A DNA stretch of 32,152 nucleotides from Verrucomicrobiota bacterium (GTDB lineage: Bacteria > Verrucomicrobiota > Verrucomicrobiia > Limisphaerales > Palsa-1400), in contig JBEKYR010000052.1 of assembly GCA_049510745.1 (NCBI GenBank), forward strand, positions 1-32,152, read 5' to 3'. Within the stretch, counting starts at the first letter, position 1. Each line of letters starts with the position of its first letter. Below, piece by piece: positions 2,181 through 29,506 of the stretch. The notes under the pieces were generated by a model. It was given only the letters and a program-made list of their open reading frames with translations, had not been told where the DNA came from and searched no databases. The position numbers were made by a program, and so were the translations under genes.

Positions 2181-2780
2181 ATGGCAAAAATCGCAATCGT
2201 TTATCACTCAAAATACGGACACACCAAACTCCAGGCGGAGGCCGTTTTCCGCGGGGCGCAGTCGGTGCCCTCGGTCACCGCCCAGCTTTACACGGCGGAA
2301 GAGGCCGCGGCGCGCCTGGACGAACTGGACTCGGCGGACGGCATCATTTTCGGCTGTCCCACCTACATGGGCAGCATGTCGGCGGGCATGAAGACCTTTA
2401 TCGAAGCCGCCGCCAAAAAGTGGTTCACGCTCGCCTGGAAAAACAAAGTGGCCGGCGCCTTTACCAACTCCAGTTCCTTCTCCGGCGACAAGCTGAACAC
2501 CCTGTTCGGCTTGGTCATCAACGCCATGCAGCACGGGATGATATATGTCGGCCTTGGGATGATGCCCTCCGCCAACAAACCGGAAGAGATGAACACCGTC
2601 GCCGGGCCTGGCCCCGAGGCGCACAACCGGGTCGGCTCGTTCGTCGGCCCGATGTCGGCGAGTTTCCAAGTCAATCCCCCCGGCGCGCCGCCGAAGGGAG
2701 ACATTGAAACCGCGGAAGCCTACGGCCATCGCGTGGCGGAGATAACTCTTCAGTTCGTCAACGGGAACCTACGGCGTTGA
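2181..2780 (+). CDS. WrbA-family flavodoxin / NAD(P)H:quinone oxidoreductase-like protein
   Basis: MAKIAIVYHSKYGHTK FMN phosphate loop, DGIIFGCPTYMGSMS, KVAGAFTNS, AMQHGMIYVG. ATG at 2181 preferred over the upstream GTG at 2118; 199 aa. Confidence 0.92.
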   Translation: MAKIAIVYHSKYGHTKLQAEAVFRGAQSVPSVTAQLYTAEEAAARLDELDSADGIIFGCPTYMGSMSAGMKTFIEAAAKKWFTLAWKNKVAGAFTNSSSFSGDKLNTLFGLVINAMQHGMIYVGLGMMPSANKPEEMNTVAGPGPEAHNRVGSFVGPMSASFQVNPPGAPPKGDIETAEAYGHRVAEITLQFVNGNLRR

Positions 2781-5700
2781 GAGGCGGAAGAAGCGCGCTT
2801 TTTGCGACTGGACCGGCACGGCGTCGGTGTAGGAGGCCGTCGTCGAGGAGGCCGTGATATTGGTGACCAAGGCCCAATGGGTGAGATTGGTCGAAACGTC
2901 AATGGCATACGACTGCCCCGGATTGGCGCTCCAATACATGGTGAACCCGTTGGTCGGCGAGGTGATGCGCGCGGCCAGGAAAAGAGGCGCGCTGATGACA
3001 ATGCGATTGGTCACGGTCACGGCGGTGATCGTGTACTTGACCTCGTTGCTGCCGGTGTTCGGAACCGCCAAATACCAAATCCCGTCGAGGCTGGGCGCCG
3101 AGGCGTTGGTCCCGATCGCCACGAATTGAAGCTCCGTTCCGGGATTGAAGCTGCCGGAATAAGAGTTCGCCGGCGTGGGGAACGTCCCGTCGCCGACCAG
3201 CAACTGCGCGTTGGCTTGACCGCCAGTGTTGGTGACCGTGAACTCGACCCCTGCCGGATTGTTGGCCACGGTGAACGAATAGACAAGGTTGGTGGGGAAG
3301 CCCGGCACTTGATTGGTAGCGTATCCAACGCCGTCCGTCAGAGGAATCACCAGCATCGCGCCATTGGTCACGTAGGTCGCCAGGATTGTGTAGCCCGCGT
3401 TGGCCACGCCCGCAAAATTATAGACGGCCAGATACCAGGTCGTCGGGGCCGGCGGCAGCACTTCGTTGGTGGTCGCCGTCGGCAGCGGGACGGGCACGGA
3501 ATTGGTCGTCACGACGATGAATTGGTCGTTGGTGCCGGCGTTGCGGCTGTCGTAGTCAAAGTTCAACGGGCCGGGCACGGGCAACCCGTCGCGCGCAAAG
3601 AGGTCCAGTTCGGCGTTGGTCGTGTTGAGAATCTGGAAGGTGACCATGCTGGCGTTGCCGGGCACGACAAAGGAATAATACTGCGGGCCGGTGTTGCCGA
3701 TGTTGGTCGCAAAGAAGGCTCCGTTGGTAAGCGGAATGATGTTGTTCGAGGCGACATCGAAATTCACCTCCAGCGTATAGGGCACGTTGACCGATGCATT
3801 GTTTTGCACGCCCAGGAAATAGCGCCGGCCCGGCAGCAGCGGCGGCGGCGCCCCCTGGGTTGAAAGCGTGTTGGTTCCAGGCCCGTTCGCCGCGGTCACT
3901 CCGGCCAGCAACGTCATATCGCCCGGCAACCCGCCGGTGGGCAAGGCGCTTTGGTTGAAGAGCAGATTCAACTGATTGGTGCCGCCGGTCACGGTCAGAA
4001 TGTTGGTCGCGAAATTGGCCGTCGCGGGAACATCCACCCCAAAGTAGGTGATGTTGGTGTAGGTCCCTCCCGGGGCATTGGTGTAAGGAACGCCATTGGT
4101 CAGGACGACGAGGCTGACGTTGGTGGAGGAAATTGTCATCTGCAAGTCCCAGCTCAACAGCGCGCCGTTATTGGGCAGCGGCGAATCGCTGCGCGTGTCC
4201 CAAATTTGCAGCGTCCAGCAGCCTTGCGGATTCTCGCCGATGAAGGGCGTGAGCGGTTCCTCGGCCAGATAGTAATTGTTGTAGTTGGTGTTGGGCAGTT
4301 CGACCAATTGGATGTCATCGAAAAGCACGCTCAACGGGTTGCCCGCCAGTTCAATCGTCGTCTGGCTGTTGGTGGCGGTGAAGCTGTTGGTAAGGCCCTC
4401 CCACGGCCCGGCGAAATTGGTCAGAATCACGGTGTTGGTCGCAACGCCGTCAATGGAAAGCTGGAAATTGGGCAGCAGCGAGTTGGTGCTGTATTTGCCC
4501 CGGCTGCCGGCATTGCAGATCGCTCGGATTTCTGCGGGCGAGAGAGCGCGGTTGTAGAGCGAAGTCTCGTCAATAAGGCCGCCGAACATGTTCAGGTATG
4601 GCACCCAGGTGCCCGTCGTGCCAATGAACAGCGGTGTCGTGTCGTAATCCAACGCAAATCCCGGCGTCGCGGACGCCTCCGCCACGCCGTTGACGTAAAG
4701 GATGGATTGATTGCCGTCGTAGGTGGCGGCGACGTGATACCAGACGCCGCGTCGCGCAATCGTCTGGGAATTGATCACCACCTGATCGCCGTAGCGCGAG
4801 ACAACAAATTGGAAGCGGTCAGAGGAAGTCCCGTCACCGTTGTCAATGGTCTCTTTGTTGAGGCTGTAGCCTTCAAACCAGGCCGACCAGGTGTTCTTCT
4901 TGAACACGATCTGTTCGCCGCCGTTGTTGGAAGGCAGATTCGGATCGAGCAAGACCCACGCCTCGACGGTGACGTTGGCGGGCTTGAGTATGGGAGAATC
5001 AGGGACCTGGACATAGCCGTTGGTGCCGTCGAAACGGAAAGCTTGTCCCACCATGCCGGTGGCATAACTCGCACCACTCGGCGACAGTGTGCCGTTGTTG
5101 CCATTGAGTATGTCTTCGGCATTGTTGTCTCCCGGCCACCAATCGGTGATCTGCGGGGAACGGACGAAGTATTGCAGTTCGTAGGAGGCGCCGGGCATGG
5201 TCGTGAAGGTCTGGACAATCCGCCCGGTGGTCAGCGCCAGGAAATTGCTGCCGGCATGCGCGAAATTGGCGTGACTCACGATCCCAACCCGGTTGGTCAC
5301 GACAGTCCATCCGCCCACGACCTGGCCATTGGTGTAGGTGCCGTTGGTGTTGGCTTCGAAGCCGGTGTAGGCAATAAAGTTGGAGCCGGTGATGAAATTG
5401 GTCGAGGCGTAGGGCGGCGGGGCGAATTTGATGGGCACGGTGGCCAGATTGGTGTTCTCGGTGAAAACAGTATAAACGATATTGGTGGAGACGAGATTCG
5501 AATTCGCGGCGTTGGTGGAGAGCAAGGTCATGCCCAGGTTGGAGGCGTTCGTTCCGCCGCGGTTTTCAAACAGGAGCACACTGGTTCCCTGCGGACTGGT
5601 CAAATGCAGGACCAGATTGTCCAAATTGGTGTCGGCGATGCGCAGGCCGACTTGCAAGTCCACCAATTGCTGGCCCACCGGCTGCTGGCCGCTGGTGACG

Positions 5701-8700
5701 CAAATCTGGGAAGCGGTCGTGCCATCGGTGGTCAAGGGTGTGACCGTGTTGTTGCTGAAACTCTCGACCAGATTGGGCGTGAGGTTTTCCCGGAAAAAGA
5801 TGTAGTTGGTCAGCGTCACAGCCAGCGAGCCGAAGTTGTAGAGGCCATAATACCATCTGCCGCCGGTCAAGGGCGGGATGTTATTGGTTCCCAGAAGGAG
5901 ATAGCCGCCCGGAGGGACAATGCCGTTGCTGCCGAAATCGCCGGTGGAAACAGGGAGGGCGTTGGTCATATAGATGCCGATTGGCCCGCCGCTGGTCTGG
6001 CTTTCAAAGATGACCACATTGGTCAGATAAATGGCGTCGTTGGGAACATCCACATAGTTGAAATACGATCCTCCATTCGCCGCCAGGGCGACGGTGATCG
6101 GCCCGTCGAAGGGCGGTTTGGGAGACACCGTGACACTGAGAGCGGTGACGGTGCCGACGCCCCCCTGCGCATTGTCCACCTCGCTCAACTGCCATTCCCC
6201 GGCCGCCTGTTGTCCGATGAAATCCTGCAAACTCCCCGGCCCGTCGGAGGGCGTCAGGACGGCCAATGGATTCTCCGGCATATCGTCATAGGTGTTGGTG
6301 AATCCTGGCGCCGTGCCGGAGTGGTTGTTGAGAAAGACGGTTGCCGGGCTGGGCGGATGCATCAGGGTTCCGGCCAAATCACCCGGATTCTGATGCGCGA
6401 CCCCGTTTGCGACCACGACCTTGCGCACCGCGTAGGCGCCTTCAAAGGCTACAATGACCGTCACCTGGCCGGGAAAATCGTAGGAACCGTCCGGAATGAC
6501 CGCCGGAATGGGACTGCCATAATAGGTAACGTCGCCGGTCTGGGAGTTGACGCTGGAAAACGCATTTGATTGCGCCACCGCGTAAAATCCGAAGTCCGCC
6601 GCCTGCTGGTCCTCCGACTTGACGCCAATGAAATAAACCATGTTGGGCGGCTGGTTGCTGTAATAGATGAATTCGTTGCCGCCGCGGCCCAAGGACGTTC
6701 GGGCGCCGGCCAGGGCGGCGGGAGTCAGACTGAGCAGGCCGGGATCCGTGGACGCGTAGAGATCAATGTCCGCATCCGTATTGCGTGGCCGGGAGAGATT
6801 GGGCGGGTAGAACGTGGTCAACAAAATGTTGCTCCCAAATAGCTGGTCGTTCGTAAAGATGAAAAAGTGCCATTGGTTCGTGCCGCCGTTTGTCGCCCCC
6901 GCGGCGTAATTGTAAAGGTTCGGCTCATTGGCCCCGACGCGCTGGTGCAGCAACGGCTGGCCGCTTCTAACGACCGTAATCAGCGGGGTGAGCACGTTGG
7001 TGATCCCGTTGGTGGTGACGACCAGCGAGCCGGCCGGCGCGGTATCATCGCTTGAGACGACCAGCGCGAAATCCTGCTCGATTTGATTGGTCTGGGTCGT
7101 CACGGCGTCGACGTTGACCCGGGTGGCGTTGACCTTGATCGTGAGCGGAAATGAAATCGGCTGAAAATCCGTCGAGATATAAACGTTTTCGACGTTATTG
7201 ACGAAGTCGCTGGGCGCGGGATTGGTGGAACTGCTCGATTCCGTGAAGGTGTCGCCGGCGAGGAAATCGTTGCCGACATAGACGTTGGTCCCGCTGTTGT
7301 CCGTCACGGTCAAGTCCAGGTTGTTGACCAGGGCGATGCCCGCCGCCGGGTTGCCGGGCGGGTCGGTCCAGACCAGCGTCACGCGCAACGGGAAATTGGC
7401 CATGTTGACGTCGTTGGTGTTGATGGTATAGGTGCGATATTGGCCGGTGGAGAGAGCATTGGCCGGACTCTGGTCCGTGAACCAGAGGGAGGAGGAGCTG
7501 GCGTTGGTCATGGAAGCCGGGATGCTGTTCTGGAGGTTGACCAGGCCCCAGCCCTGTTCGTTGGCCACGCTGGACTGCATGTTGAAATCATAGACGCCGC
7601 CCAGGGAACGCGCGCCGTTAATGAGCAGCGCCTTGAGCAGCGCGGGGCTGGGATTTGGGTTGGCCGGGAAATTCGTCTGCAAAAACTGCTGCATCAGCGC
7701 CAGCACCCCCGACACGGCCGCGGCGGACATGCTTGTGCCGTTCTCATAACGGTAGTAAGGCCCCAACGTATGGTTCATGTTGCTCAACACCGTATAGTAA
7801 TTGCCCAGGGTGTTGGTCTGGTAGATGTAGATGTTCAAATCGTAGGAAACCGGTTGATTGGTGGGATTGATGATCGCCACGTACCAGTAGCCCGGAACCA
7901 GGTTGTTGGCGGTTGTCATCGGACTGGTCGATTCCGCGCCACCCGGCGGATTGTTCCGTCCGTTTTGGATCAGCAGCGGCGGGAATGGGCTGGGCGATTG
8001 CAGGTTCGCAACAAGCTGGACAGTGAGCGAAACGCTGTCCACCGGCAGAATAATCGGCAAAATGTTCGTCTTGCCAGGATTGACGATCTGGGCCGGCAGG
8101 TTGATATAATCCAGTATGTATTCGAGCGTCGGGTCCACGTAGTCGGCCGCCCGGCAGGAGACGGTGAAGACGCCCGGGGCGACGACATCCGGCTTGAAGC
8201 GCCCGAATTGCCCCTCGGACTGGATGCCCACGTTGCCGCAACTGGAAAAGAACGACACCAGGTTGCTGTTGTCGGTGGTGCCGTAAAACACGGCGTTGGA
8301 CGTCGAATTCGTCTGGGGCCAGTTGTAATCAACTTGGTTGGTGATGAAACGAGGGCTGTTAATGGAGCCGACGGTGATGACATTCTTGGCGGTGCCCGGC
8401 GAGGTAATGGTTCCTTCGAGTCCATCGGTGCCCGAACCCGATCCGTCCCCGCTGTTGCCGGCGGCGAAGACAAACAACATCGCCTGCTCGCCGGGCGTGG
8501 CCGGCTGCGCGTCACGCACGGCGGCGTCGTAGCTGGCAGCCGCCATGTCGTAGGCCATGCCCTGGTAATTCCAACTGTTGTTGGAAATAAAGCCGTTGGT
8601 GATTCCCGAGTGGCTGGCCGTCGCGTCCGTGATCAAGGCGGAGGAGGCGTTGCTTTGCAGATAGGCGTCGGAAATGAAGGGACCCAGCAGCAGGTCCAAT

Positions 8701-9797
8701 CCCTGGACGTACAACTGCGCACCCGGGGCCTTCCCGCGAAAATCGGCGCCGGGAATAATCGAGCCGGGCACATAATTGGTGACCGTGGCCGATTTCAGCC
8801 CGCTGCCCGCGAGAATCCCGGCGACATGCGTGCCGTGGCCGTCGTAATCGTACTGCACTCCGGAAACTCGATTTGACAGGTCCGGATGGCTGGCATCGAC
8901 GCCCGTGTCGTTGATGTTGACCCAGATATTGGAGCCGGTCAGATTGAGGTAATTGGGAGTATTGGTCAGGGTGTCCGCGGAAACGCCCAATTGCACGCGG
9001 GCCAGGTCATTCGCGGAGTGGCGCGGCCCATAGACCTCGATTTCCTGCGCCAAAGGCAACTGGGCCACGGCCGCCAGCGTGTCGGGCGGCGCTTGCACGA
9101 TCAAGATGGGGCCAAACGGGCCGCGGTCCTCGCCGATCACACTGGCGCCCAGGCCGGTCAACGCCGCCACCGCGGCATCGCGCTGGCCGGGGAAGGTGGT
9201 CACGCGCAAGGCGTTGGTCTGCGGCTCCTGCTCGACGGCCGAGGGCAGGAGAGTGGCGTCGAGCTTGTAATACGGTTCGTAAGGCAGCACCGCCTGGAAC
9301 GCCGGGTCCTGCACCATTTGCTTGGCCTGCTCCGGCGTGGCCTGCACCAACGCGGCGTTATTGGGAATGTAACCGACATAGGTCGCGCCGTTCTTTGTCA
9401 ATTCGGCGTAAAACTCCCGGTCCAGCGGGCGGTCGGATTGCACGATATAACTGCCGGGCGCTCCCTGGGCGCGCAAATGCGCCGGAATCTTCAGTCTGAC
9501 GGGCAGGGCGGTGTCGATGAGCGCGTTGCGCAAAATGAGGCCGTGATTGTTGCGGGCCAGTTGCCCGGCGGTGGCGCGGGTGTTGGACAACCGGTAGGAA
9601 TCGGGTTTGCCCGTCTGCGTCTGATTGGCCGCTTTGGTCAGGGCCGGAGCGCGCGGCGGCGGCGGATGGACGGGGGTCGTTGGCGTGGCGGCGCGGCGAT
9701 GGGCGGCGGAATACTTCTCGGCGTAGAAGCCCATCCACAGCGTGGCCGCGAAGAGCAGCAGACTGAGCAGAAACCAGGTTAGCGACTTAAAGCGCAT
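2769..9797 (-). CDS. Giant secreted/surface S8 subtilase (KP-43/TagC-like catalytic domain) with PPC-like repeats, two proprotein-convertase P-like domains, a LamG domain and a C-terminal RFFR module; 2342 aa
   Basis: ATG at 9797 after a GGAGGTG Shine-Dalgarno; hydrophobic N-terminus; propeptide YIVQ..GYIPNNA. Complete triad INDTG (~8908), GHGTHVAG (~8836), GTSMS (~7732); oxyanion FAAGNSG; KPDVVAPG; LKALLINGA; QGWGLVNL; LRVTLVWTDPPG. P-domain motifs HQNPGDL..GEWQL..D and DLQVGLRI..LTSPQGT..GCWTLQIWD; LamG WYHVAATYDG..IDETSLYNRALS. Confidence 0.92.
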   Translation of the reverse strand: MRFKSLTWFLLSLLLFAATLWMGFYAEKYSAAHRRAATPTTPVHPPPPRAPALTKAANQTQTGKPDSYRLSNTRATAGQLARNNHGLILRNALIDTALPVRLKIPAHLRAQGAPGSYIVQSDRPLDREFYAELTKNGATYVGYIPNNAALVQATPEQAKQMVQDPAFQAVLPYEPYYKLDATLLPSAVEQEPQTNALRVTTFPGQRDAAVAALTGLGASVIGEDRGPFGPILIVQAPPDTLAAVAQLPLAQEIEVYGPRHSANDLARVQLGVSADTLTNTPNYLNLTGSNIWVNINDTGVDASHPDLSNRVSGVQYDYDGHGTHVAGILAGSGLKSATVTNYVPGSIIPGADFRGKAPGAQLYVQGLDLLLGPFISDAYLQSNASSALITDATASHSGITNGFISNNSWNYQGMAYDMAAASYDAAVRDAQPATPGEQAMLFVFAAGNSGDGSGSGTDGLEGTITSPGTAKNVITVGSINSPRFITNQVDYNWPQTNSTSNAVFYGTTDNSNLVSFFSSCGNVGIQSEGQFGRFKPDVVAPGVFTVSCRAADYVDPTLEYILDYINLPAQIVNPGKTNILPIILPVDSVSLTVQLVANLQSPSPFPPLLIQNGRNNPPGGAESTSPMTTANNLVPGYWYVAIINPTNQPVSYDLNIYIYQTNTLGNYYTVLSNMNHTLGPYYRYENGTSMSAAAVSGVLALMQQFLQTNFPANPNPSPALLKALLINGARSLGGVYDFNMQSSVANEQGWGLVNLQNSIPASMTNASSSSLWFTDQSPANALSTGQYRTYTINTNDVNMANFPLRVTLVWTDPPGNPAAGIALVNNLDLTVTDNSGTNVYVGNDFLAGDTFTESSSSTNPAPSDFVNNVENVYISTDFQPISFPLTIKVNATRVNVDAVTTQTNQIEQDFALVVSSDDTAPAGSLVVTTNGITNVLTPLITVVRSGQPLLHQRVGANEPNLYNYAAGATNGGTNQWHFFIFTNDQLFGSNILLTTFYPPNLSRPRNTDADIDLYASTDPGLLSLTPAALAGARTSLGRGGNEFIYYSNQPPNMVYFIGVKSEDQQAADFGFYAVAQSNAFSSVNSQTGDVTYYGSPIPAVIPDGSYDFPGQVTVIVAFEGAYAVRKVVVANGVAHQNPGDLAGTLMHPPSPATVFLNNHSGTAPGFTNTYDDMPENPLAVLTPSDGPGSLQDFIGQQAAGEWQLSEVDNAQGGVGTVTALSVTVSPKPPFDGPITVALAANGGSYFNYVDVPNDAIYLTNVVIFESQTSGGPIGIYMTNALPVSTGDFGSNGIVPPGGYLLLGTNNIPPLTGGRWYYGLYNFGSLAVTLTNYIFFRENLTPNLVESFSNNTVTPLTTDGTTASQICVTSGQQPVGQQLVDLQVGLRIADTNLDNLVLHLTSPQGTSVLLFENRGGTNASNLGMTLLSTNAANSNLVSTNIVYTVFTENTNLATVPIKFAPPPYASTNFITGSNFIAYTGFEANTNGTYTNGQVVGGWTVVTNRVGIVSHANFAHAGSNFLALTTGRIVQTFTTMPGASYELQYFVRSPQITDWWPGDNNAEDILNGNNGTLSPSGASYATGMVGQAFRFDGTNGYVQVPDSPILKPANVTVEAWVLLDPNLPSNNGGEQIVFKKNTWSAWFEGYSLNKETIDNGDGTSSDRFQFVVSRYGDQVVINSQTIARRGVWYHVAATYDGNQSILYVNGVAEASATPGFALDYDTTPLFIGTTGTWVPYLNMFGGLIDETSLYNRALSPAEIRAICNAGSRGKYSTNSLLPNFQLSIDGVATNTVILTNFAGPWEGLTNSFTATNSQTTIELAGNPLSVLFDDIQLVELPNTNYNNYYLAEEPLTPFIGENPQGCWTLQIWDTRSDSPLPNNGALLSWDLQMTISSTNVSLVVLTNGVPYTNAPGGTYTNITYFGVDVPATANFATNILTVTGGTNQLNLLFNQSALPTGGLPGDMTLLAGVTAANGPGTNTLSTQGAPPPLLPGRRYFLGVQNNASVNVPYTLEVNFDVASNNIIPLTNGAFFATNIGNTGPQYYSFVVPGNASMVTFQILNTTNAELDLFARDGLPVPGPLNFDYDSRNAGTNDQFIVVTTNSVPVPLPTATTNEVLPPAPTTWYLAVYNFAGVANAGYTILATYVTNGAMLVIPLTDGVGYATNQVPGFPTNLVYSFTVANNPAGVEFTVTNTGGQANAQLLVGDGTFPTPANSYSGSFNPGTELQFVAIGTNASAPSLDGIWYLAVPNTGSNEVKYTITAVTVTNRIVISAPLFLAARITSPTNGFTMYWSANPGQSYAIDVSTNLTHWALVTNITASSTTASYTDAVPVQSQKARFFRLSTP

Positions 9798-9904
9798 TGT
9801 CACCTCCAGCCCTCGCAAGTAGGGGGCATTGATATGTTAACAGAAAGAGGATGTCCGTGCCAGAATAATCCGCGGGTCCGGCCGGCGCAAGTGCCAGGGG
9901 CGGA

Positions 9905-9948
9905 ATTGACAATTGCAAATTGAAAATTTTCAATTTCCAATTTTCAAT
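9905..9948. repeat. AT-rich 44-bp imperfect palindrome built from heptamers
   Basis: Perfect 20-bp core AAATTGAAAATTTTCAATTT (9917-9936), extending with two mismatched pairs to 9905-9948. Lies between the PilX-like gene and the protease. Confidence 0.9.
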
Positions 9949-10003
9949 ATCTTCGAAGACTCTCTTCTGGCTTTTCATAGTATCATCTCCATCCGCATCT
10001 GGT

Positions 10004-13000
10004 CTAATTCCCCGCCTCGATATTAAAGCTGTCGATCACAATCTTCGGGCTGGTGGCGAGCGGATCGCTGACCATGTGGCAGACTGTCCGGGTCAAAACT
10101 TCGCCGGTGATTTCGTAGTTGGTGCAGATGTTGAAATTGAGGCCGGTGCCGTAATAGAAGCTCTTGGGCCGCAGCGATTGGCCCCAGGCATAAATGACAA
10201 ACTGCGGATCGCCCAGCTTGACCAGCGATAGAATCTGCTGCGGGATGCGCTCGACGACTTCGTCCGAGTAAAGGGAAGCATTTGTGAGAAACGGCGACTG
10301 TACTGTGAGCGCCGGCGTCTTGAAAAGATAACCCAGACGGTGGAACAGGCCGTTCGGCTCGTTGGCGCGCGTCGCATTGATTCCGTTGGTGGCATCGACC
10401 AGCGCATAGATATTGGTCGGCGCGACGGTCACGCCGTAGAAGGCATTTGTCGGCACGACCAACCCGGCGAAGACCGCCGCCCAGGCGGCGTCGTTGGTTT
10501 GATTGATCGAGAGCAAGCCGCGCGCGGCATTATCATTGGGAACGGCGGTGAAAAGGTCCGCCAGGACATAATCATTTGTCGGATACGTTCCGAGTGTTCC
10601 CGACCAATTGCTCAACCAAGTGATCGCGTCGTTGGGGTTTGGTGAGTCGGGCTTAAAATAGACCGTCTGCCACGGCGTGCCGCGATGGACGCGTCCGAGC
10701 CAGCCGATGCCGGGGAACTTATTAGTCGGAAAATCAAAGCTGTCCACATTGGTAGCCATCGGATCCTTGAACAGCCAATTATTTCCGATCGCCGAATTGG
10801 GCCAGTTCCACGGTTCATAGCGGGGCGGTGGCACTTGCCCAAGATGAGTGTAATTGGTCGGGGACGCCAGGGCCGGGGTGGCGGGGCGGACGTACTGCAC
10901 CAGATTCGTTGATTGAAATTCAGGCCAGGAAAGATCATCAACCGTATAGTGGACCAATGGGTCGTTAGCCTGCCAAGTGCTCGACTGTTCGAGGTAAACG
11001 GTCGGCTGGAAGGGACAATCCATCGTCAAGTTGGTTCCGGTTCCCGACAGGAGGTGGTACCAATTAATCTCTAGGCCCGGATAATAGTCTGAAGGTTCGG
11101 GAGGGTAAGCGGGGGGCCAGTCTGAAACGGCAATACCGCCGAACAAAGGCCCTTCTCCAATGCGCATTTGGGCCAACTCCCCTTGGGACATGGCAGAACC
11201 GGGGCTGTCGCTGGCTCCGGTCGTATTCCAGACTATTGTGCTTGAATCGGGGTTATTGCCATTGCCCACCGGGAACATGGAAGTGCCCCCGGGATTCCCT
11301 AATATGCCGTTGGTCAGGCGCCCAATAAGATCAAGCGAGGTCCCCAGCGGGCCAAGATTGACGAAGTCAAGAAGCGGGCCTGGACTATTTGGTGAACCGT
11401 CGTACATGCAATACAGCAGGGAATTTGTAACGTTCACCACCCACGAATGCACCGGGAAAGATGTCTGGTAATAGTCGGCGGGAAGATACTCGGTGGGACT
11501 GCCGCTCATGTTGAAAAATGCCCGATTGTGCTCGGAATAATAAGCGTCCGGGAACGAAATCACATTCGTGAGGAGCGGCAGCAGCATGCTTCTCTTCCGA
11601 TTCCGGCCGGAAAAGCCCGCCCATTGGTCGTAGTTCAGCGTCAGGTTGGTCACGGTTATATAGTAATTGCTTATATACAAATAGGGCGCAAGCGGGGATG
11701 AATTTTCGATGACGACGGTCGCGAAATTGCTCACGTAGCATGTCACCTGTCTTGGATAGGCGTTGCTGTACGGGTTCCAAACCTGCGCGCCAATCAGGTT
11801 TGAAATCGACAAGTCATAAAACTGGTTTGTATAATCCGGGGGCGTGTTCGTTTGACGCCGCCAGCATGTGAGCTTCCGCGTCATTTCAATGGAGTTCACC
11901 GTGCTGAACTGGTTGAAACTGGGCAAGCCCTTGACCGTTCCGACAACCCACGGGACACCCAAAATGTTACAATCGCGGCCATTATTCGGGTCTCTATAGA
12001 GTTTCGAGTTGGGATCGTTCATGTTGTAGAACGGCTGGGCGGCTTGAAACGCCCAATTGGTGGAATTGACGATGGCGTAGTTAGTGATGCTGACCGTCAA
12101 ATTGGTGGTCCCATTTTGTCTCAGCGCGTAGAACTGCGGGCGAAATATATGTGGGACAAAAACTGTAGGATCGCCTGCTACCACAGGCGCCAGAGTATTG
12201 CTGCTTGAACCACATACATTGGCGTCGTAAATGTTGGCCGCCAGTTGCAACATGCGATGGATTTGGGCGTTGTAACGGATGCTGGAATTCGTCGAATTAA
12301 AGATGGGTATATTCGTGATTCCAAAATGCATGTACGCATAGTTCGTCACGTAGTTCGACGGTCCGATCAGGCTTATGTAGTTGGCCACGGGAAACTCCTG
12401 CGACCGCAAAAGCAAGTCGGCGGCGTTGGTGAAAAACGCCAGGGGCGCCCACGACGTCAGGTTCGTCGGCATCGGGACGAAGGGGGCGTTCGAGTCCTGG
12501 ATTTGGGCGGTGTTGTTGTAGTTGAGATTGATCTTGGTTCGCAGCCACGTCGGCGGGGCGCCGGAATTGGTGGTGATGGAATTGCTGTAAACGAACACCC
12601 CGTATTCGGGACTCGACCCGGTGCCGATGCACTGCAAGAGGCGCTGGAAGGTGTAGCGGTCAAAGAAATTAGTCCGCGCTTCCGCCAATAGCATTCGATT
12701 GGTGAATTGAAACGAGGTCTTGGTCGGGTCGAACAAATCCTGCGGATCATAAAACATGTTGGTCGAGTAGCTCCCTGGCCATGGGGCAGCCCTATTGACG
12801 AGAAACGCATCCGGGTCGTTAGTGTAGTTGAACGGAGCGGTCAACGGCGCGCTGGCGCAATAGCTGTCAATATTATCATATTCAAAATTTAGATAATTGG
12901 AATAGTCTTGCCGCAAACTGGCCAGAAAAGGCTTGGGCCCCCAATAGCGGTAATGCACGATGGATTCCGCGTCGTCGAAGGCGTAGCCGGTGTTCGGGCC

Positions 13001-13978
13001 GCCGGGGGACGCCGAGGGGTTGACATAGTAATACGGATTCAAGCTGTAATAGGGGTTGTATTCGTAAGCCCAGGGGCTGAGGACATCGAGCATCGCCGCC
13101 AGATTCAATTCCCAGGAACCCACTCCCTGGTCGCGGGCGAAGCCGTCGCTTTCGGGATTTCCAGTCAGTCCGGTCAGAGGGCCGACGGGACCGACGTTAT
13201 TTGTCAATACCGTAACGGAGTTCACGTAATTGCCTTTGGCCCAGTTGTGAATGAAATTGAAATCGAGGGTCTTGCCGATGGGCAGGACCATGTAGGCGTA
13301 GCGCCCGATGAATTTGTTGGAGGACGAGTGGCGGGAGAGCGGGTCGCTCAAAACACCGATCCATTCCGGTTCCCCGTTCCAGACCTGGTAGGGTCCCAGC
13401 GGCAACCCCCCCGCCGCTTCATTGGTTACGGTCGGGATATAGCCGTTGGTTTCAAAGCGGCCATTGCGGTTGACATCGACCCAAAAGCGGAAGTCGCTGT
13501 TGGTGGGGAAGTTCGCATTGGTGACGACGAAGACCGGCGGGCGCGGATCGTAGAAGAGATCGGCAATGTTTTGCGCCCAATCCTTGTCATAAGGGGGCTG
13601 TGAAGACATCGGCCGGTGAAGTGTCGCATTGTAGTCGTAATTGACGTTGCCGGTGTCGTTGCTGCGGGTGTTAAAGCCGTTGGGGTTGATGTAGTTCTGC
13701 GAAACCATGTAGTCGTAACTGAGCCAATCGGTTTGCGCCATCATGCGCGCGATGATTTCCCCCTGGGCGCGGGCGAAGGCGGCCTCGCTCATGGTGCGGG
13801 CGCCGTTGACGTCCATGCTGGCGGTCACGGCCGCGCGATCGCGACGCGTCATGGCCAGAAAGGCCACGGCCAGAAAGGTGATGACGGAGAGCATCAACAG
13901 TGTGATGACCAGGGCAATGCCGTCCTGGCGCCGGCGTCCGCCGCCGCTGACTCCGCTGGATTGTAGGTTCAAGTTCAT
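10004..13978 (-). CDS. Large PilX/GspK-like minor pilin (resembles Verru/Chthon cassette protein A), 1324 aa
   Basis: Basic leader RRRQDG, then IALVITLLMLSVITFLAVAFL lacking Glu5, followed by A..MSEAAFARA (PilX N-terminal pattern). GRYAYMV motif; C-terminal FVIYAWGQSL..YEITGEVLTRTV. ATGA overlap with the upstream gene. Confidence 0.82.
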   Translation of the reverse strand: MNLNLQSSGVSGGGRRRQDGIALVITLLMLSVITFLAVAFLAMTRRDRAAVTASMDVNGARTMSEAAFARAQGEIIARMMAQTDWLSYDYMVSQNYINPNGFNTRSNDTGNVNYDYNATLHRPMSSQPPYDKDWAQNIADLFYDPRPPVFVVTNANFPTNSDFRFWVDVNRNGRFETNGYIPTVTNEAAGGLPLGPYQVWNGEPEWIGVLSDPLSRHSSSNKFIGRYAYMVLPIGKTLDFNFIHNWAKGNYVNSVTVLTNNVGPVGPLTGLTGNPESDGFARDQGVGSWELNLAAMLDVLSPWAYEYNPYYSLNPYYYVNPSASPGGPNTGYAFDDAESIVHYRYWGPKPFLASLRQDYSNYLNFEYDNIDSYCASAPLTAPFNYTNDPDAFLVNRAAPWPGSYSTNMFYDPQDLFDPTKTSFQFTNRMLLAEARTNFFDRYTFQRLLQCIGTGSSPEYGVFVYSNSITTNSGAPPTWLRTKINLNYNNTAQIQDSNAPFVPMPTNLTSWAPLAFFTNAADLLLRSQEFPVANYISLIGPSNYVTNYAYMHFGITNIPIFNSTNSSIRYNAQIHRMLQLAANIYDANVCGSSSNTLAPVVAGDPTVFVPHIFRPQFYALRQNGTTNLTVSITNYAIVNSTNWAFQAAQPFYNMNDPNSKLYRDPNNGRDCNILGVPWVVGTVKGLPSFNQFSTVNSIEMTRKLTCWRRQTNTPPDYTNQFYDLSISNLIGAQVWNPYSNAYPRQVTCYVSNFATVVIENSSPLAPYLYISNYYITVTNLTLNYDQWAGFSGRNRKRSMLLPLLTNVISFPDAYYSEHNRAFFNMSGSPTEYLPADYYQTSFPVHSWVVNVTNSLLYCMYDGSPNSPGPLLDFVNLGPLGTSLDLIGRLTNGILGNPGGTSMFPVGNGNNPDSSTIVWNTTGASDSPGSAMSQGELAQMRIGEGPLFGGIAVSDWPPAYPPEPSDYYPGLEINWYHLLSGTGTNLTMDCPFQPTVYLEQSSTWQANDPLVHYTVDDLSWPEFQSTNLVQYVRPATPALASPTNYTHLGQVPPPRYEPWNWPNSAIGNNWLFKDPMATNVDSFDFPTNKFPGIGWLGRVHRGTPWQTVYFKPDSPNPNDAITWLSNWSGTLGTYPTNDYVLADLFTAVPNDNAARGLLSINQTNDAAWAAVFAGLVVPTNAFYGVTVAPTNIYALVDATNGINATRANEPNGLFHRLGYLFKTPALTVQSPFLTNASLYSDEVVERIPQQILSLVKLGDPQFVIYAWGQSLRPKSFYYGTGLNFNICTNYEITGEVLTRTVCHMVSDPLATSPKIVIDSFNIEAGN

Positions 13979-14847
13979 CGGGAGGCGACGGGTATGGTGA
14001 TGCGCTGGCGGAAGACATCCACTTTGTTGGGGGAGCTAAAGAGATAATTGGACACGGCCTGCGAATTGCCCACCAGGGCCTGCGCCCGCGCAAAGGCTTC
14101 CGGCTCCAAAACGGCCAATTCCAATTCGACGGAGTTGGGCAAGGTGTTGCTGATAATCGTGATGAGGCCGTTGGTGGACAAGTAAGGCGGATACGAAAAT
14201 TCCACGGCGTTATTCTGGTCCTTCTTCTGACTGAAGTCACCGTAATAGGACTCCCAGTAGGGTTCGTTGCCGTTCTGGTCAAACGCGCGCAGTTTCAAAT
14301 GAATGACCCCGTCGGCAACGGCGTGCCAGTTGGAGCCGAAAGTCTGGCGGGAGATACCCGAGTAGAAATTCGAGAACAGTTGGTAGTCAATGACGGGAGA
14401 ATTGGTGGAAACCACGTAGCGATAGAGCGTGCCCAGGCAGGGGCCGTTGTTGGAGACGGCATAACCGATTCCCGTCCAAACCGTGTTCGTATGGACCAGG
14501 ATGTATATCTCGTCCTGCTGGTTGGTGCGGACGATCACGCCGTCGATGCCTTGCGGGAGCTGATTGCTGGCGGCCCAACCCCAGTAGAGGTTGGTCACCG
14601 ACTGGTTCCGCGCGTCGGACATCTGCCGCAAATCATTCCCGATCATGTCCATGATGGTGCGGCCGGCGTCGGTCACATCGGATTGTTTGATGCCCGTTTT
14701 GAAGGCCCGCTGGGTTTGGATGAACACGGCGGTCAAGCCCAGGACAATGAAGGAGAGTATGGCGGTGGAAACGAGCATTTCCAAAATGGTCAGCGCATCC
14801 CGCGAGGGCGGGCGGGAGGAATTTTCGGTTGGAAATCGTGTTTTCAC
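13975..14847 (-). CDS. PilW/GspJ-like prepilin (cassette protein C-like), ~290 aa
   Basis: SRDA/LTILEMLVSTAILSFIVLGL with Glu5, then GRTIMDMIGNDLRQM; C-terminal LPNSVELELAVLEP. GTG start at 14847 overlaps the upstream TGA (GTGA), so the ORF-track start at 15033 is not used. Confidence 0.82.
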   Translation of the reverse strand: MKTRFPTENSSRPPSRDALTILEMLVSTAILSFIVLGLTAVFIQTQRAFKTGIKQSDVTDAGRTIMDMIGNDLRQMSDARNQSVTNLYWGWAASNQLPQGIDGVIVRTNQQDEIYILVHTNTVWTGIGYAVSNNGPCLGTLYRYVVSTNSPVIDYQLFSNFYSGISRQTFGSNWHAVADGVIHLKLRAFDQNGNEPYWESYYGDFSQKKDQNNAVEFSYPPYLSTNGLITIISNTLPNSVELELAVLEPEAFARAQALVGNSQAVSNYLFSSPNKVDVFRQRITIPVASR

Positions 14848-15746
14848 AGGTTGTTGAACGGCGGCGGCGGCACACTGTTCGTGTAGGAGAACGGTTGGAA
14901 GAACCAGTTCGTTTCCACTTGCCCGTTGGGCAGCAGGATTGAAGAGGGAAACAACTGGGCCGCAACCATGCTGCGGTAGGTTTGGCGGCCAGGCCCGACG
15001 ATGTAGCCGGCGCTGGCGGGCAGGACCGGCCAACTGAAATGAAGCCGGATTTCAAATAGATTATAGACCAGCGCTCCGTTGCCGGGAGTCGAAGTGGTCC
15101 AGGTTGTCTCGAGCCAGCGATTGGAACAGAGCGCCACCCAAGTGGGGTCCGGATTCGGAAGGCTTTGATAGTACACATAGTTTGTTGAATCCGGCGCAAT
15201 GTTGATAAACGGAACGACCTCGACGGTCATCTGGTATCTGAAGGCCGTCGCCGTATTCGCCCCGCTTTGCTGGCTCGCCGGCCCGCTCAGCGCCCGCACG
15301 ATGGCCGTGGTCGAGATGTTGGTGTAGGGACTGGCATAGAGCGGTTGCGGGGTGGAGAGCAGCCCGATAATGTTCGAGCCGCTGGTGAAATTCGAGTAAA
15401 CCGTTAAAAAGTTGAAGGCACCGTTGACGTAATTGGAGAACGTGATCGATTCCACGTAATTGGTCAGGAAATCCAGGCCGTGGTTGGCCCCCCCAAAGTT
15501 GGTCGAACTCGGCGGGCAGCCGTTGCGAATGGCCTCCAGGAAATAGGGAGCGTCCTGGGTGATGAGGGTATCCTCGCGGTTCTCCTTTTGCACGCCCATC
15601 CCCGCCGGGAGGATGCCAATAATCGCCACCAGGGCGAAACCGATGACACCAATGGCAATGGCAATTTCAACCATGGTGAAACCCAGCTCGCCCTGGCGGC
15701 GCTGTTCCTTGGCGTCTGCGACCGTATTTTCAGACGAAATCTTCAT
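14844..15746 (-). CDS. PilV/GspI-like prepilin (cassette protein B-like), 300 aa
   Basis: ELG/FTMVEIAIAIGVIGFALVAIIGILPAG class III signal peptide; TAATG coupling with the upstream gene. Confidence 0.85.
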   Translation of the reverse strand: MKISSENTVADAKEQRRQGELGFTMVEIAIAIGVIGFALVAIIGILPAGMGVQKENREDTLITQDAPYFLEAIRNGCPPSSTNFGGANHGLDFLTNYVESITFSNYVNGAFNFLTVYSNFTSGSNIIGLLSTPQPLYASPYTNISTTAIVRALSGPASQQSGANTATAFRYQMTVEVVPFINIAPDSTNYVYYQSLPNPDPTWVALCSNRWLETTWTTSTPGNGALVYNLFEIRLHFSWPVLPASAGYIVGPGRQTYRSMVAAQLFPSSILLPNGQVETNWFFQPFSYTNSVPPPPFNNL

Positions 15747-16714
15747 TAGAACTTATTCTGCAAAAGCGTGGCCCGGGACGTCAGCCAATCGATCCGGATC
15801 ATATTGGGATTGTTTGTTTCGTTGCCCGGCGGAGTGGCCACGACGCTGACCGGGCCTGCGACGGGCACTCCGTTGGAATCCTCGGAGTAAAAGACGCTGC
15901 CGCGTTTGAGCACGATGTACTGGTTGGTCTGCGTCAGCAGGCTGCCCTGGGGTGTAAAGGCGATGTAAGGCAGCTTGTTCACCGATCCCGCGGCGACGGA
16001 AGGAAATGGCACGGTCACGGGCGTCCAGTTCAATGGGAAGACCGTCTCGGGGTTGGTCTGGCCCGTGGTCGTGTTGGTGGTGGTAATGGTGAGAGCCGGC
16101 TGATTGCTAATGAACTCGAACTCGGAAATGAGCACCCCCTGGGGCAATGTCCGCCAGTCGGTCAAATAATGCGCGAAATGCTGTCCCGGCTGGTCGCCAA
16201 CCGAGTTCAAAGCCAGCAGGGCGTAGGAGGTGTATTGGCGTGCCAGCAGGTTGGTGAGTTGCAGATTCGAGAAATCGTTCGTCAAGCTCTTGATATAGTC
16301 CTGATTGGTCCAAAAACCAGGCGGAACGAACACCATATAGACCGTCGAACGATTGACCAACGCCCGCTGCCGCGCCAGGGCAACGTCATCGAGCAGTTGC
16401 CGGTCGGCCGCGGCCAGGGTGTTGGCTTTGGCGAAGCCGCTGACGTGCGGCAAAGCCATCGCCGCCAGAAAACCAATGATGGCCACGACCATCATCAATT
16501 CCAGCAGCGTAAAAGCCCGCGCCCGCCTGGAATGACGCCAGCCGCGAACTTTGCACGAGACCCTCCGGCCGGGAGCCGGGCACCGCGCCCCAATCCATCC
16601 GGAGCCGTCGCGCCGGCAAAGGAGCCGCGGCCACAGGGCCGGTTCCTCGATCCACAGCACGGGCAGGCGCCGCCGGAGGGAATCGTTTGTGGCGATGGAG
16701 TTCATAGAATTCAT
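15746..16714 (-). CDS. FimT/GspH-like prepilin (cassette protein D-like)
   Basis: RRARA/FTLLELMMVVAIIGFLAAMALP, then AADRQLLDDVALARQRALVNRSTVYMVF and IAFTPQGS (FimT/GspH pattern). TAATG coupling at 16714 implies a 67-aa leader; true start uncertain. Confidence 0.85.
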   Translation of the reverse strand: MNSMNSIATNDSLRRRLPVLWIEEPALWPRLLCRRDGSGWIGARCPAPGRRVSCKVRGWRHSRRARAFTLLELMMVVAIIGFLAAMALPHVSGFAKANTLAAADRQLLDDVALARQRALVNRSTVYMVFVPPGFWTNQDYIKSLTNDFSNLQLTNLLARQYTSYALLALNSVGDQPGQHFAHYLTDWRTLPQGVLISEFEFISNQPALTITTTNTTTGQTNPETVFPLNWTPVTVPFPSVAAGSVNKLPYIAFTPQGSLLTQTNQYIVLKRGSVFYSEDSNGVPVAGPVSVVATPPGNETNNPNMIRIDWLTSRATLLQNKF

Positions 16715-17367
16715 TACCAGTTGCCGTTAGTGATGATGACTAATTGGCCGCTTTTCGAGCCGATGGAATACTCGGCCCAGAGGTCGTAAGTGCTCGGGTT
16801 GTGCCGGTACGGGCTGGAGGAATCGTAATGCCAGAAATTGAGCTGCCCATTGGTCACAGGGACCGGCACCAGCAGACCGAAGATGCTCGGGTATGCGGCG
16901 GTGTAATTCGTGTAGTCCTTGGGCAACGGGAGCGGCTTGAAAAAGTTTTGCGGTTCAACGGCATCTGAGTTGGCAATGCCGCCCCGGGCAAAGACGTTAG
17001 TAAAAGCGATTCTCTGAATGGTCCCCCCGTTCCCGTAGTTCACAATATAATTGCCGCCCAAATTTGTCGGAATGGCCCCGGTCAACTCATAAAGCAGCGG
17101 GTTGGTGCGTGAATAACTCTCAACGGCTGTCTGCGCGGCCGCGGCGATGTTTCCGTTGTCCGGCGGATAGAAACTCAACTTCGACTGATAGTTGTCGATG
17201 GCGAGCATCAGCCTGTGCCTTTCGGCATCGACCATGCCCTTCTTGCGGGCGTTGGAGGCGGCGCCGGCCATGCTGATGACCATGGCGGCCACAATCCCCA
17301 TGATGGCAATGACCATCAGCATCTCGATCAGGGTGAAGCCGCTCCGTTTTGGGTTTGTCATGTTCAT
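16714..17367 (-). CDS. Prepilin / GspG-like pseudopilin, 217 aa
   Basis: KRSG/FTLIEMLMVIAIMGIVAAMV, AIDNYQSKLSFYPPDN, and C-terminal HNPSTYDLWA resembling the GspG YDLxS motif. Confidence 0.87.
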   Translation of the reverse strand: MNMTNPKRSGFTLIEMLMVIAIMGIVAAMVISMAGAASNARKKGMVDAERHRLMLAIDNYQSKLSFYPPDNGNIAAAAQTAVESYSRTNPLLYELTGAIPTNLGGNYIVNYGNGGTIQRIAFTNVFARGGIANSDAVEPQNFFKPLPLPKDYTNYTAAYPSIFGLLVPVPVTNGQLNFWHYDSSSPYRHNPSTYDLWAEYSIGSKSGQLVIITNGNW

Positions 17368-17368: not shown

Positions 17369-17671
17369 CTAACCGTTCTGCGAGCGCGCGCCGAGTTTCT
17401 GGTCCCGCATTTCCTGTTCCATCCGCTCGCTCAGCCATTGTTTGATCATGCTTTGATAATTGAGATACCGCGACCGGGCCAGGCGCTTGATCCGCGCCAG
17501 CATCCGCGGGTCCATGCGCAAAGTGATCGTCGTCGAATCGGCCAATTCGCTGCCCGCCGCCACCGAACTGTCCATCAACCGCACGTCGATGCGGGACTCG
17601 GCCCAATAAGCGGCCTCGGCCTCTTCGCCGTCGAAGATCGGGACTTCCTCCCAATTGGAAATGGCATTCAT
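17369..17671 (-). CDS. CopG/BrnA-like ribbon-helix-helix antitoxin
   Basis: VPIFDGEEAEAAYW N-terminal motif and TTITLRMDPRMLARIKRLARSRYLNYQSMIKQWL RHH pattern; immediately downstream of a BrnT-like gene. Confidence 0.82.
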   Translation of the reverse strand: MNAISNWEEVPIFDGEEAEAAYWAESRIDVRLMDSSVAAGSELADSTTITLRMDPRMLARIKRLARSRYLNYQSMIKQWLSERMEQEMRDQKLGARSQNG

Positions 17672-17679
17672 AGGTGAAT

Positions 17680-17967
17680 CTATTGCGCCAGTGTTTGGTT
17701 GAGTTTTCGTTGATAAAAAAACCGCTCTTCCGGCTCGAAAGGCCGCGCGAAAATCACGCGGGCCTGCTTGCCATTGGTGCGGAACACCGTAAAAACACCC
17801 GTGCCATCCGCCGCCATGCCCAGATTGAAAAACCGGGCCTGGACAGCGAACCGGGGCGAATCCGGCAACAACCGGACCGCGAACGGGTCTTCAAACGACT
17901 CTTCGATGATTTGCAGCGAGAGCGAGGTTTCGAGATTGAAGGGCGGATTGTTCCAATCAAATTCCAT
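17680..17967 (-). CDS. BrnT-like (DUF497) toxin homologue, divergent
   Basis: MEFDW start, FEDPF, RFFNLG, RVIFAR (cf. RIISAR) and EERFFY; 95 aa; toxin-before-antitoxin order as in brnTA. Confidence 0.75.
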   Translation of the reverse strand: MEFDWNNPPFNLETSLSLQIIEESFEDPFAVRLLPDSPRFAVQARFFNLGMAADGTGVFTVFRTNGKQARVIFARPFEPEERFFYQRKLNQTLAQ

Positions 17968-18068: not shown

Positions 18069-18482
18069 TTAAGGCGCCTGGGGGGCGCGGGTGAAGGCGC
18101 TGGCCACTTTGATGTTCGCGGCTTTGGCGGCGTCCATGACCTTGACGACCTGGCCCCACGGAGCCTCGGTGTCGGCGCGGATGGCCAGGGTCGTTTCGGG
18201 ATTGGCGTGGACGGCGTCGATGAGCCGTTTTTGCAGGGTGTCCAGGGTCACGGGGTCCGATCTCAGGTAAAGCGGGCCTTGCTTGGAGATGGTGACGACA
18301 ATGGAGTTTTCAGCGGCGCCGGGTTTTTGCTGTCTGGATTCCGGCAGGGCCAGCTTGAGGTTGGGCTGCTGCTTGAAGGTGGTGGTCACGATGAGAAAGA
18401 TCAGAACGACGATGAGCACGTCGATGAGCGAGACAATGATGACGGAGGGAGCCTGCCGGCGTTTGCGAGTGGTGAATTGCAT
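18069..18482 (-). CDS. exbD: Biopolymer transport protein ExbD/TolR
   Basis: SLIDVLIVVLIFLIVT TM helix with the conserved Asp, LALPES, IRADTEAPWGQVVKVMDAAKAA; 137 aa. Confidence 0.92.
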   Translation of the reverse strand: MQFTTRKRRQAPSVIIVSLIDVLIVVLIFLIVTTTFKQQPNLKLALPESRQQKPGAAENSIVVTISKQGPLYLRSDPVTLDTLQKRLIDAVHANPETTLAIRADTEAPWGQVVKVMDAAKAANIKVASAFTRAPQAP

Positions 18483-18488
18483 GGGTGA

Positions 18489-19118: not shown

Positions 19119-19151
19119 GATCGAAATCTTCTCTCAGGAGAGCAGGTTAGT

Positions 19152-29478: not shown

Positions 29479-29506
29479 GTCTTGGCTGGAAAGAGGCCCC
29501 GTCCGG

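Follow-up and report, generated by a model that had tools for sequence, protein, structure and literature searches.

Cargo recognition by type II secretion systems (T2SS) as well as by type IV pili is still poorly understood, according to the accessible text of PMC10120004. In the T2SS, pseudopilins are encoded in the order GspG-H-I-J-K, as in the locus described here, and the K subunit (E. coli GspK, 3ci0; P. aeruginosa XcpX, 5vtm) resembles our cap pilin in lacking Glu5, in possessing an alpha-domain and in supplying its last strand in cis, the last two being predicted for our cap. GspK-type caps supply their last strand themselves and let cargo go, and modular caps such as Thermus ComZ (6qvi) and Caulobacter CpaL are K-like pilins that bear a large insert and have a cis strand, as here (PMC13533445, in the part available). 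Unlike ComZ and CpaL, the cap described here retains the GspK alpha-domain. In contrast to a T2SS, our K homologue is about four times longer and carries an insert of about 500 aa, PilT is linked, and the operon possesses one fixed downstream partner gene but no gspC/D/L/M. The type IVa tip (FimU-PilV-PilW-PilX-PilY1-PilE) shares with this locus a PilB/PilT/PilC motor, linked in relatives, and a large exported protein 3' of the K homologue; however, the partner here is without the PilY1 propeller.

Four pilin-like genes, including a K-like member of about 1,300 aa, also make up the Verru_Chthon A-D families (TIGR02600, TIGR02598, TIGR02599, TIGR02596). In contrast to these, the cassette studied here does not recur many times across its genome and is tied to motor genes and a protease. 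A search of the openly accessible literature on Verru_Chthon, on Verrucomicrobia secretion and pilins, on Limisphaera/Pedosphaera and on Akkermansia found no paper on this system. As for the protease, it differs from KP-43 and SubHal by an N-terminal hydrophobic segment, by a catalytic-domain insert and by C-terminal modules that together span about 1,400 aa. The C-terminal domain of type IX secretion (T9SS; TIGR04183) and PorU offer a further parallel, namely a small beta-sandwich at the end of numerous exported proteins, a protease among them. By contrast, the tail domain found here is FN3-like, has no sequence match to that domain and no cleavable linker that we could find, and occurs in tandem copies. 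In Dichelobacter nodosus, optimal secretion of subtilases requires type IV fimbriae, and our protease resembles AprV2, AprV5 and BprV, subtilases with a pro-region and a P-domain extension whose secretion is fimbriae-dependent. These differ in having 36-kDa mature domains and extensions of about 14 kDa that are cut off and dispensable for secretion (PMC3480457, in the part available).

Results

We analysed a window of 32,152 nucleotides from a Verrucomicrobiota bacterium of the order Limisphaerales (contig JBEKYR010000052.1). The features described below all lie on its minus strand. Five prepilin genes are joined by the overlaps TAATG, TAATG, GTGA and ATGA, in that order. They encode a GspG/PilE-like prepilin of 217 aa (16714..17367; motif G/FTLIE; N_methyl and TIGR02532 over cut-off), a GspH/FimU-like prepilin (15746..16714) of 322 aa counted from the overlap ATG, with a 67-aa leader before A/FTLLE, a GspI/PilV-like prepilin of 300 aa (14844..15746; G/FTMVE), a GspJ/PilW-like prepilin of 290 aa with a GTG start (13975..14847; cleavage motif A/LTILE) and a giant pilin of 1324 aa (10004..13978; G/IALVI, Glu5 absent). 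A gap of 206 bp (9798..10003), without a terminator-like site and with an unremarkable hairpin (z -1.10), leads to the gene for an S8 subtilase of 2342 aa (2769..9797), which has GGAGG ahead of its ATG. The coordinates and junctions thus confirm what a sequence-only reading of this DNA had claimed: five overlapping prepilin genes with a co-oriented protease, its triad intact, 206 bp downstream. Its further statement, that genes for an ATPase, platform, secretin or peptidase are missing from the window, is correct for the ORFs translated or scanned. When checked against the Verru_Chthon models, as that reading had proposed, each gene matched its counterpart weakly and N-terminally: D by the H-like gene (TIGR02596, 43 bits, cut-off 70), B by the I-like gene (TIGR02598, 21 bits, cut-off 51), C by the J-like gene (TIGR02599, 23 bits, cut-off 256) and A by the cap pilin (TIGR02600, 25 bits, cut-off 332). 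The likeness to all four families stood, but every score fell far below cut-off.

The earlier reading lacked two features. One is a conserved brnT-like/brnA-like gene pair (17967-17369), and the other is a C-terminal domain, described below, that the protease shares with other proteins of this genome. The brnT-like gene (17680..17967, 95 aa) is the conserved head of the operon. Of 61 genomes, 55 have it, with identities of 49-91%, and it is single-copy in nearly all relatives; its PF04365 match (E 0.001) is below cut-off, the BrnT-like toxin score being 19.7 against a cut-off of 34.5 bits, and a PDB search with the protein did not find a BrnT match. The adjoining BrnA/CopG-like ribbon-helix-helix gene (17369..17671, 100 aa), the putative antitoxin partner, scores over cut-off with PF12441 and shows a median identity of 75% in 51 of 73 loci.

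The protease gene lies directly 3' of the large pilin gene in 54/54 assessable loci (73 GTDB loci in all) and in 49 of 61 relatives, the remainder being mostly contig breaks. In 32 relatives the gap between them ranged from 6 to 1277 bp, with a median of 167 bp, and the strict adjacency spans some 30 families. Within one soil/water order, almost all genomes that could be assessed have pilin genes and protease co-located, a pairing far above chance expectation; the synteny of the PilX-like gene with an S8 protease, suggested earlier as a check, is conserved. This locus is a core operon maintained by vertical descent. The proposal that it is an exchangeable tip module was rejected, because the genome has a single full-length copy of the large pilin, the brnT-like head is single-copy and the cassette is joined to motor genes in most assessable relatives. 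Proteases without a cassette also occur. One relative (G017) has four additional copies of the protease, which are 97-99% identical and of which at least three have no cassette upstream; in another (G020, 95% complete) a protease start was found without an upstream cassette, and the cassette was not found in the genome. In another class, the full cassette lay within about 6 kb of the giant protease in one of the 11 genomes examined. Outside the order, no adjacent S8 gene was found by BLAST at 20 loci with weak K-like matches, three of which ended at contig edges.

The fold of the giant pilin was read from orthologue L060, which is 44-45% identical to the window protein and whose AlphaFold model has a pLDDT of 75.9. 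The model matched GspK (3ci0_K) with a VIA Z of 12.5, XcpX (5vtm_X) with 12.0 and ComZ (6qvi) with 7.9, and it aligned to GspK and XcpX as far as the last strand of both. Absence of Glu5, an alpha-domain and a terminal strand in cis, the marks of a T2SS pseudopilin tip, were found in the orthologue model and the window sequence taken together. The 1324-aa pilin is accordingly predicted to be a GspK-type cap with its own last strand in cis. Such a cap would not be expected to take up a strand in trans, and by the available text of PMC13533445 no adhesin-donated C-terminal strand is expected. The earlier description of the protease as standing in place of PilY1 is therefore not supported in a mechanistic sense, since a PilY1-type slot is not expected in a cap that the model renders GspK-like. 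Foldseek at E 0.001 did not find a match to the cap, and nothing useful came from searching PDB sequences with the alignment of the cap.

For the beta-rich insert of the cap (10919..12466, about 500 aa), the matches to beta-sandwiches were only middling, with Z no higher than 6.5. The insert is also found on its own, in signal-peptide proteins whose C-terminus is the tail domain: among 150 relatives, 22 possess the tail domain without a pilin core, and none of the 108 with an N- or C-terminal pilin core has the tail domain. As tail and pilin core never occur together among them, it looks as if one passenger could take either of two routes, the pilin mount or the tail.

The protease scores over cut-off with PF00082 and has the Asp-His-Ser triad and oxyanion Asn of an S8 subtilase: D297 (DTG), H321 (HGTH), S689 (GTSM) and N448. 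All three strict triad motifs are present in 38 of 51 homologues. Pfam identified Peptidase_S8 (E 4e-34), P_proprotein and Laminin_G_3, and the protein comprises an N-terminal hydrophobic segment, a prodomain, the catalytic domain, and P and PPC-like beta-sandwiches. A PDB sequence search at E < 1e-10 gave two matches only, KP-43 (1wmd) and SubHal (5fax), spanning the catalytic end and the next beta domain, and by this measure the protease is KP-43-like. The orthologue alignment delimits a conserved prodomain (9012..9602), with putative self-cleavage ahead of N263 (NDLAR), which we take to correspond to the mature start of KP-43. The hydrophobic segment is conserved and looks uncleaved, so that the protease is probably a membrane-anchored zymogen; in homologues from another class, its position is occupied by an STN/secretin-N0-like domain in 8 of 11, below cut-off. 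Median identity is 47% for the prodomain, 52% for the catalytic domain and 30-39% for the four small pilins. Orthologues vary in length (2,176-4,665 aa), and a variable slot with low occupancy at residues 1550-1770 holds a LamG domain here (4527..5030, PF13385) and RCC1 or He_PIG/cadherin repeats in others. Pfam did not find the PF05567 beta-propeller of PilY1/PilC in the protease; a search of the genome gave no PF05567 match, but its controls were equally silent. An NCBIfam 'TafC' match was dropped, as it is weak, lies in the LamG region and points to a fimbrial family of archaea.

The C-terminal 74 aa of the protease (2772..2993), ending in ARFFRLSTP, are predicted to form a six-stranded sandwich of FN3-like fold. 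This unnamed domain terminates 121 ORFs of the genome, with no match in reversed ORFs, and was found in 86 phylum genomes, many with 25 or more copies. Of 32 protease orthologues, 7 have the domain in tandem, an arrangement as compatible with a binding module as with a tag. The idea that tail-domain genes cluster with pilins across the genome was rejected: 11 of the 121 lie within 500 bp of pilin genes, against a null mean of 6.4 (sd 2.4), and this is no enrichment. No conserved linker or cleavage motif was found ahead of the domain in the 60 of 121 proteins inspected. None of 76 members matched Por_Secre_tail, the T9SS C-terminal domain, in Pfam or NCBIfam at E 0.1, Foldseek at E 0.001 found no match, and T9SS tail structures were absent from the top VIA matches. 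A search of the genome gave no TIGR04183 or SprA match, but its controls were also silent.

In 26 of 43 loci with room, pilC lies upstream of the brnT-like gene at a distance of at most 1.5 kb, and pilB and pilT usually come before it (mostly as a pilB, pilT, pilB set). pilC is not directly upstream in the other 17, nor in this window. The linked motor genes of relatives best match the motor genes and a pilT paralogue on contig C6 of this genome, mostly at 65-90% identity, and by this comparison their orthologues sit on C6, which bears out the suggestion that the core machinery is encoded elsewhere. The C6 pilT passes TIGR01420 (445 bits, cut-off 319); both extension ATPases are just below the GspE and PilB cut-offs. 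The PilB, PilT and PilC motor of a type IVa system is thus present on C6 here and adjacent in the 26 loci. In contrast to a whole T2SS, with its GspE-type ATPase and no retraction ATPase, the linked motor cluster includes a PilT over cut-off. ATPase, platform, secretin and prepilin peptidase are all present elsewhere in the genome: its secretins number four and its ATPases 14, and contigs C14 and C53 carry additional pseudopilin sets; PilM over cut-off and an Amuc_1098-like secretin are on contig C46. A secretin match was found in only 2 of 116 cassette loci.

Discussion

We tentatively propose that these genes supply the pilins and the cargo of a conserved operon, that the operon builds a retractile type IV filament, and that this filament exports the protease dedicated to it, an explanation to which we grant nearly, but not quite, an even chance. 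A predicted GspK-type cap would complete its own tip. The protease would be made as an inner-membrane-anchored zymogen and cut itself ahead of N263, freeing an enzyme of about 2,080 aa into the periplasm. The C6 motor would then extend and retract the filament, pushing the giant subtilase through a secretin as dedicated cargo, with the tail domain as a possible tag for export or surface retention. The P, PPC and LamG modules may anchor the exported enzyme to surfaces or substrate. Cap-protease adjacency, the linked motor, the GspK-like cap, the exclusivity of tail and pilin core and the Dichelobacter precedent speak for dedicated export. Against it stand the other machines of this genome, which could carry the protease, the proteases without a cassette in G017 and G020, the lack of enrichment of tail-domain genes near pilins, the tandem tails, and the loci, this one included, where pilC is not directly upstream.

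Might the protease instead stay on the filament tip, probably via the cap insert or alpha-domain, as an extended and retracted protease-adhesin with the functional role of PilY1 by other attachment? Its gene occupies the PilY1/MshQ position directly 3' of the K homologue (PMC13533445, in the part available), its variable slot and range of lengths are adhesin-like, and a retraction ATPase is linked. However, the cap sheet is predicted to be complete in cis, the propeller was not found, and dispersed protease copies exist; moreover, a C-terminal domain common to about 120 unrelated proteins is not a private tip latch. We regard tip display as doubtful. A maturation enzyme, staying at the machine in periplasm or surface and processing the giant cap or tail-domain cargo, seems unlikely to a similar degree. 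PorU performs such a processing role in type IX secretion, and a conserved, uncleaved-looking hydrophobic segment, the STN/secretin-N0-like domain at that place in the other class, the proprotein-convertase P domains, and a prodomain and catalytic domain better conserved than the small pilins are consistent with it. Yet no conserved cleavage motif was seen ahead of the tail in the 60 proteins inspected, and a universal PorU-like role was rejected, as the giant protease (>200 bits in only 11 of 200 phylum genomes) is far rarer than the tail domain.

It is quite improbable, in our judgement, that the two are co-regulated only, the filament serving adhesion or motility via the cap insert and the protease being a surface enzyme that is transcribed along with it but leaves the cell by a different type II system. 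The other complete machines in the genome, the dispersed protease copies and the rarity of the full cassette near the protease in the other class would agree with this, but adjacency is strict, with gaps down to 6 bp, and the protease is kept adjoining while motor genes are often separated. Were it so, the finding would shrink to another member of known pilus operons. A broader version of export, also improbable in our view, would make the operon, with its retractile filament and giant GspK-type cap, the dedicated export machine for a large, so far undescribed tail-domain secretome of Limisphaerales (121 proteins here), with the subtilase as founding cargo or processing enzyme.

One conserved operon thus unites a retractile motor, a giant cap predicted to complete itself and a fixed protease partner with a discrete tail domain, in an abundant, little-studied order. 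Uncharacterised cassettes of Verru_Chthon type gain a structural identity (H, I, J and giant K) and a candidate function. As the tail domain is common to about 120 mostly exported-looking proteins, it allows a direct test as an export tag, and of the machine that reads it. If the tail-secretome reading is true, type IX secretion would have a counterpart built on a type IV filament, and machines of this class would have their first sorting domain that is discrete and folded.

Organization of the prepilin-protease operon

The layout that the sequence-only reading had claimed for the window was borne out: five prepilin genes with their overlaps, a 206-bp gap and a 2,342-aa S8 subtilase (2769..9797, minus strand). 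Glu5 is present in four of the window pilins and absent from the 1,324-aa pilin, a predicted GspK-type cap (the cap below; 10004..13978); five Glu5 prepilin motifs precede this large pilin in 43/51 loci, and four do so in the window. Counted from its overlap start, the H-like pilin (15746-16714) has a leader of 67 aa, and several same-family orthologues align from the first residues. Kinship with the Verru_Chthon cassettes, also proposed by that reading, stood as to gene order, the NCBIfam models D, B, C and A being matched in succession, and did not stand as to score, the matches being N-terminal and far below cut-off.

Upstream of the pilins, and 1 bp apart from them, BrnT-like and BrnA/CopG-like ORFs (17369-17967, minus strand) form part of the pilin unit. 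Almost all of 55/61 genomes carry this pair once, and its conservation (median 73-75%) exceeds that of every other operon gene, which is unusual for a toxin-antitoxin; one genome, G060, has two brnT-like genes (on contigs C60 and C98). The BrnT-like protein scores below its family cut-off and may be a domesticated regulator.

Motor genes outside the window

Of 43 loci with enough sequence upstream, 26 have pilC no more than 1.5 kb from the brnT-like gene; in most of these, pilB and pilT come ahead of pilC, and ahead of them another pilB if the locus extends far enough. These motor genes find their best matches in G000, the genome of the window, in a cluster on contig C6 (64269-70167) and a C6 pilT paralogue. 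The common operon order thus reads as pilB-pilT-pilB-pilC-brnT-brnA-pilins-protease, and in G000 the motor genes lie on C6. The core machinery had been predicted to lie outside the window, and the motor half of the operon does sit elsewhere in G000. The C6 pilT is over its family cut-off, and both extension ATPases score between GspE and PilB. The upstream place of the motor genes is occupied in the window by tonB-exbB-exbD (18069-20324, minus strand), for which a search of the 116 other cassette loci gave no match. Two overlapping genes, one with FG-GAP repeats and one with LamG and Ig domains, lie at 20340-22810 (minus strand), where GC is lower (52-54%); the LamG-Ig gene ends inside an apparent further Ig domain.

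G000 contains four secretins, 14 ATPases, one prepilin peptidase, two PilM and several other pilin sets. A PilM and a secretin on contig C46 resemble, below cut-off, the Akkermansia Amuc_1101 and Amuc_1098 families (PMC13174399 describes the Akkermansia MUL2 locus), and are candidate partners of the filament.

Linkage of the cap pilin and the protease

The large pilin was matched in 58 of 61 related genomes, drawn from 31 families within a single order, and the N-terminal 999 aa of the protease in 52. The protease follows the pilin by coordinates in 45, and in four more its start comes directly after the pilin at a contig end, giving 49/61. In eight of the remaining 12, the cap or protease gene is cut by, or less than 600 bp from, a contig end; G041 has a partial cassette only, in G020 no cassette lies upstream of the protease start, and in G053 and G058 (75% and 87% complete) neither gene was found full-length. 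A second sample comprised 73 GTDB loci, including Limisphaerales and Pedosphaera, assessable where at least 900 bp follow the pilin. The proposed synteny was upheld, with the protease directly after the pilin in 54/54 assessable GTDB loci and 49/61 relatives; the two samples may overlap, and kin among them are non-independent. Outside the order, a full-length orthologue of the large pilin was found in none of 200 phylum genomes.

The cap-protease pair occurs twice in G054 (C8 and C62), and protease or cap genes are broken into two or three ORFs at L004, L009, L010, L017, L018 and L033, by sequencing error or true frameshift. G017 carries four near-identical extra protease copies; its five copies (L010, L041-L044), three of them at contig ends, share 97-99% identity over 3-5 kb but only about 84% in their diverged 3' halves, a pattern of recent duplication with variation among the passengers.

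In another class of the phylum, a 3,500-4,200-aa protease homologue occurs in 11/200 genomes, with an STN-like N-terminal domain, below cut-off, in 8/11. Its link to type IV genes is looser: of the 11, one has a full cassette about 6 kb upstream, four a divergent pilin pair up to about 7 kb away, and two a gene judged by eye to be pilM-like, 5-6 kb downstream. These giant proteases (L122-L140) also carry TSP3, Kelch and carboxypeptidase-regulatory repeats, and a gene labelled by eye as glgC-like often follows.

Structure of the cap and the protease

A cap orthologue of 1,196 aa, modelled with AlphaFold (pLDDT 75.9, pTM 0.74), matched GspK best (Z 12.5, rmsd 4.5, 253/280 aligned; model 30-1194 on chain 29-315), ahead of XcpX (Z 12.0) and ComZ (7.9), and the GspK match extends through the last strand. 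PilY1/PilC attach by donating the last strand, and GspK-type caps have their own, according to PMC13533445. The suggestion that the protease stands in place of PilY1 is therefore not supported in the mechanistic sense, as on this model a PilY1-type latch would not be expected for it. The cap carries a beta-rich insert of about 500 aa, its least conserved region (median 29% vs 45-48%). Among the best 150 relatives of the insert, 22 lack the pilin core, open with an apparent signal peptide and carry at their C-terminus the tail domain treated in the next section, which was found in 0/108 with a pilin core.

The nearest solved relatives of the protease are KP-43 and SubHal. Its orthologues retain a basic-hydrophobic N-terminus closing in Trp and charged residues, probably an uncleaved membrane anchor, and a conserved prodomain terminating at an ND(L)xR motif. 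After the catalytic domain come P and PPC-like sandwiches with a variable slot, which holds LamG in the window protease.

A shared C-terminal tail domain

The last 74 aa of the protease (2772..2993) are confidently predicted as a six-stranded FN3-like fold (pLDDT 90). The model aligns with FN3 domains short of their end, e.g. 5-74 of 90 residues (Z 7.1, middling), suggesting that the last FN3 strand is missing. No Pfam or NCBIfam model matched over cut-off, and Atlas entries were unnamed Verrucomicrobiota clusters only. In G000 the domain matched 125 ORFs, 121 of them no more than 12 aa before the stop (Pro or Gln is the last residue in 96), and none among reversed ORFs; a loose signal-peptide heuristic picked 89/114 tail-domain ORFs vs 395/1,052 background ORFs. 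It ends 25/32 protease orthologues, a partly circular count since the same orthologues went into building the profile; split ORFs account for five of the others, and 7/32 have tandem tails. It also ends all ten other-class homologues read to the end. The domain occurs in 87/201 phylum genomes, many tail-rich ones lacking the giant protease, and in G000 its genes show no clustering with those for pilins. The window has a second such ORF (28670-29506, minus strand; 279 aa stop to stop, domain at its end), and on G000 contig C22 (68921-74469) a 1,248-aa tail-domain ORF and a secretin gene overlap.

Role of the protease

Our tentative preference, at slightly under an even chance, is that the filament is retractile and self-capped: self-cleavage would release the protease from the membrane, and the filament would then export it. 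Dichelobacter subtilases (PMC3480457) offer a precedent for pilus-dependent secretion. Counted against export are the unclustered tail genes, the tail-rich genomes without the protease, the tandem tails, the G017 copies and the other export machines in G000. We regard it as improbable that the protease is instead displayed at the filament tip, give a role as maturation enzyme the same low weight, and rate slightly lower still that cassette and protease are co-regulated only.

The operon is real and order-wide, and combines a type IVa motor with a giant cap in the type II style and a constant protease partner. New here are the tail-domain link and the finding that pilin core and tail domain are mutually exclusive on the cap insert.
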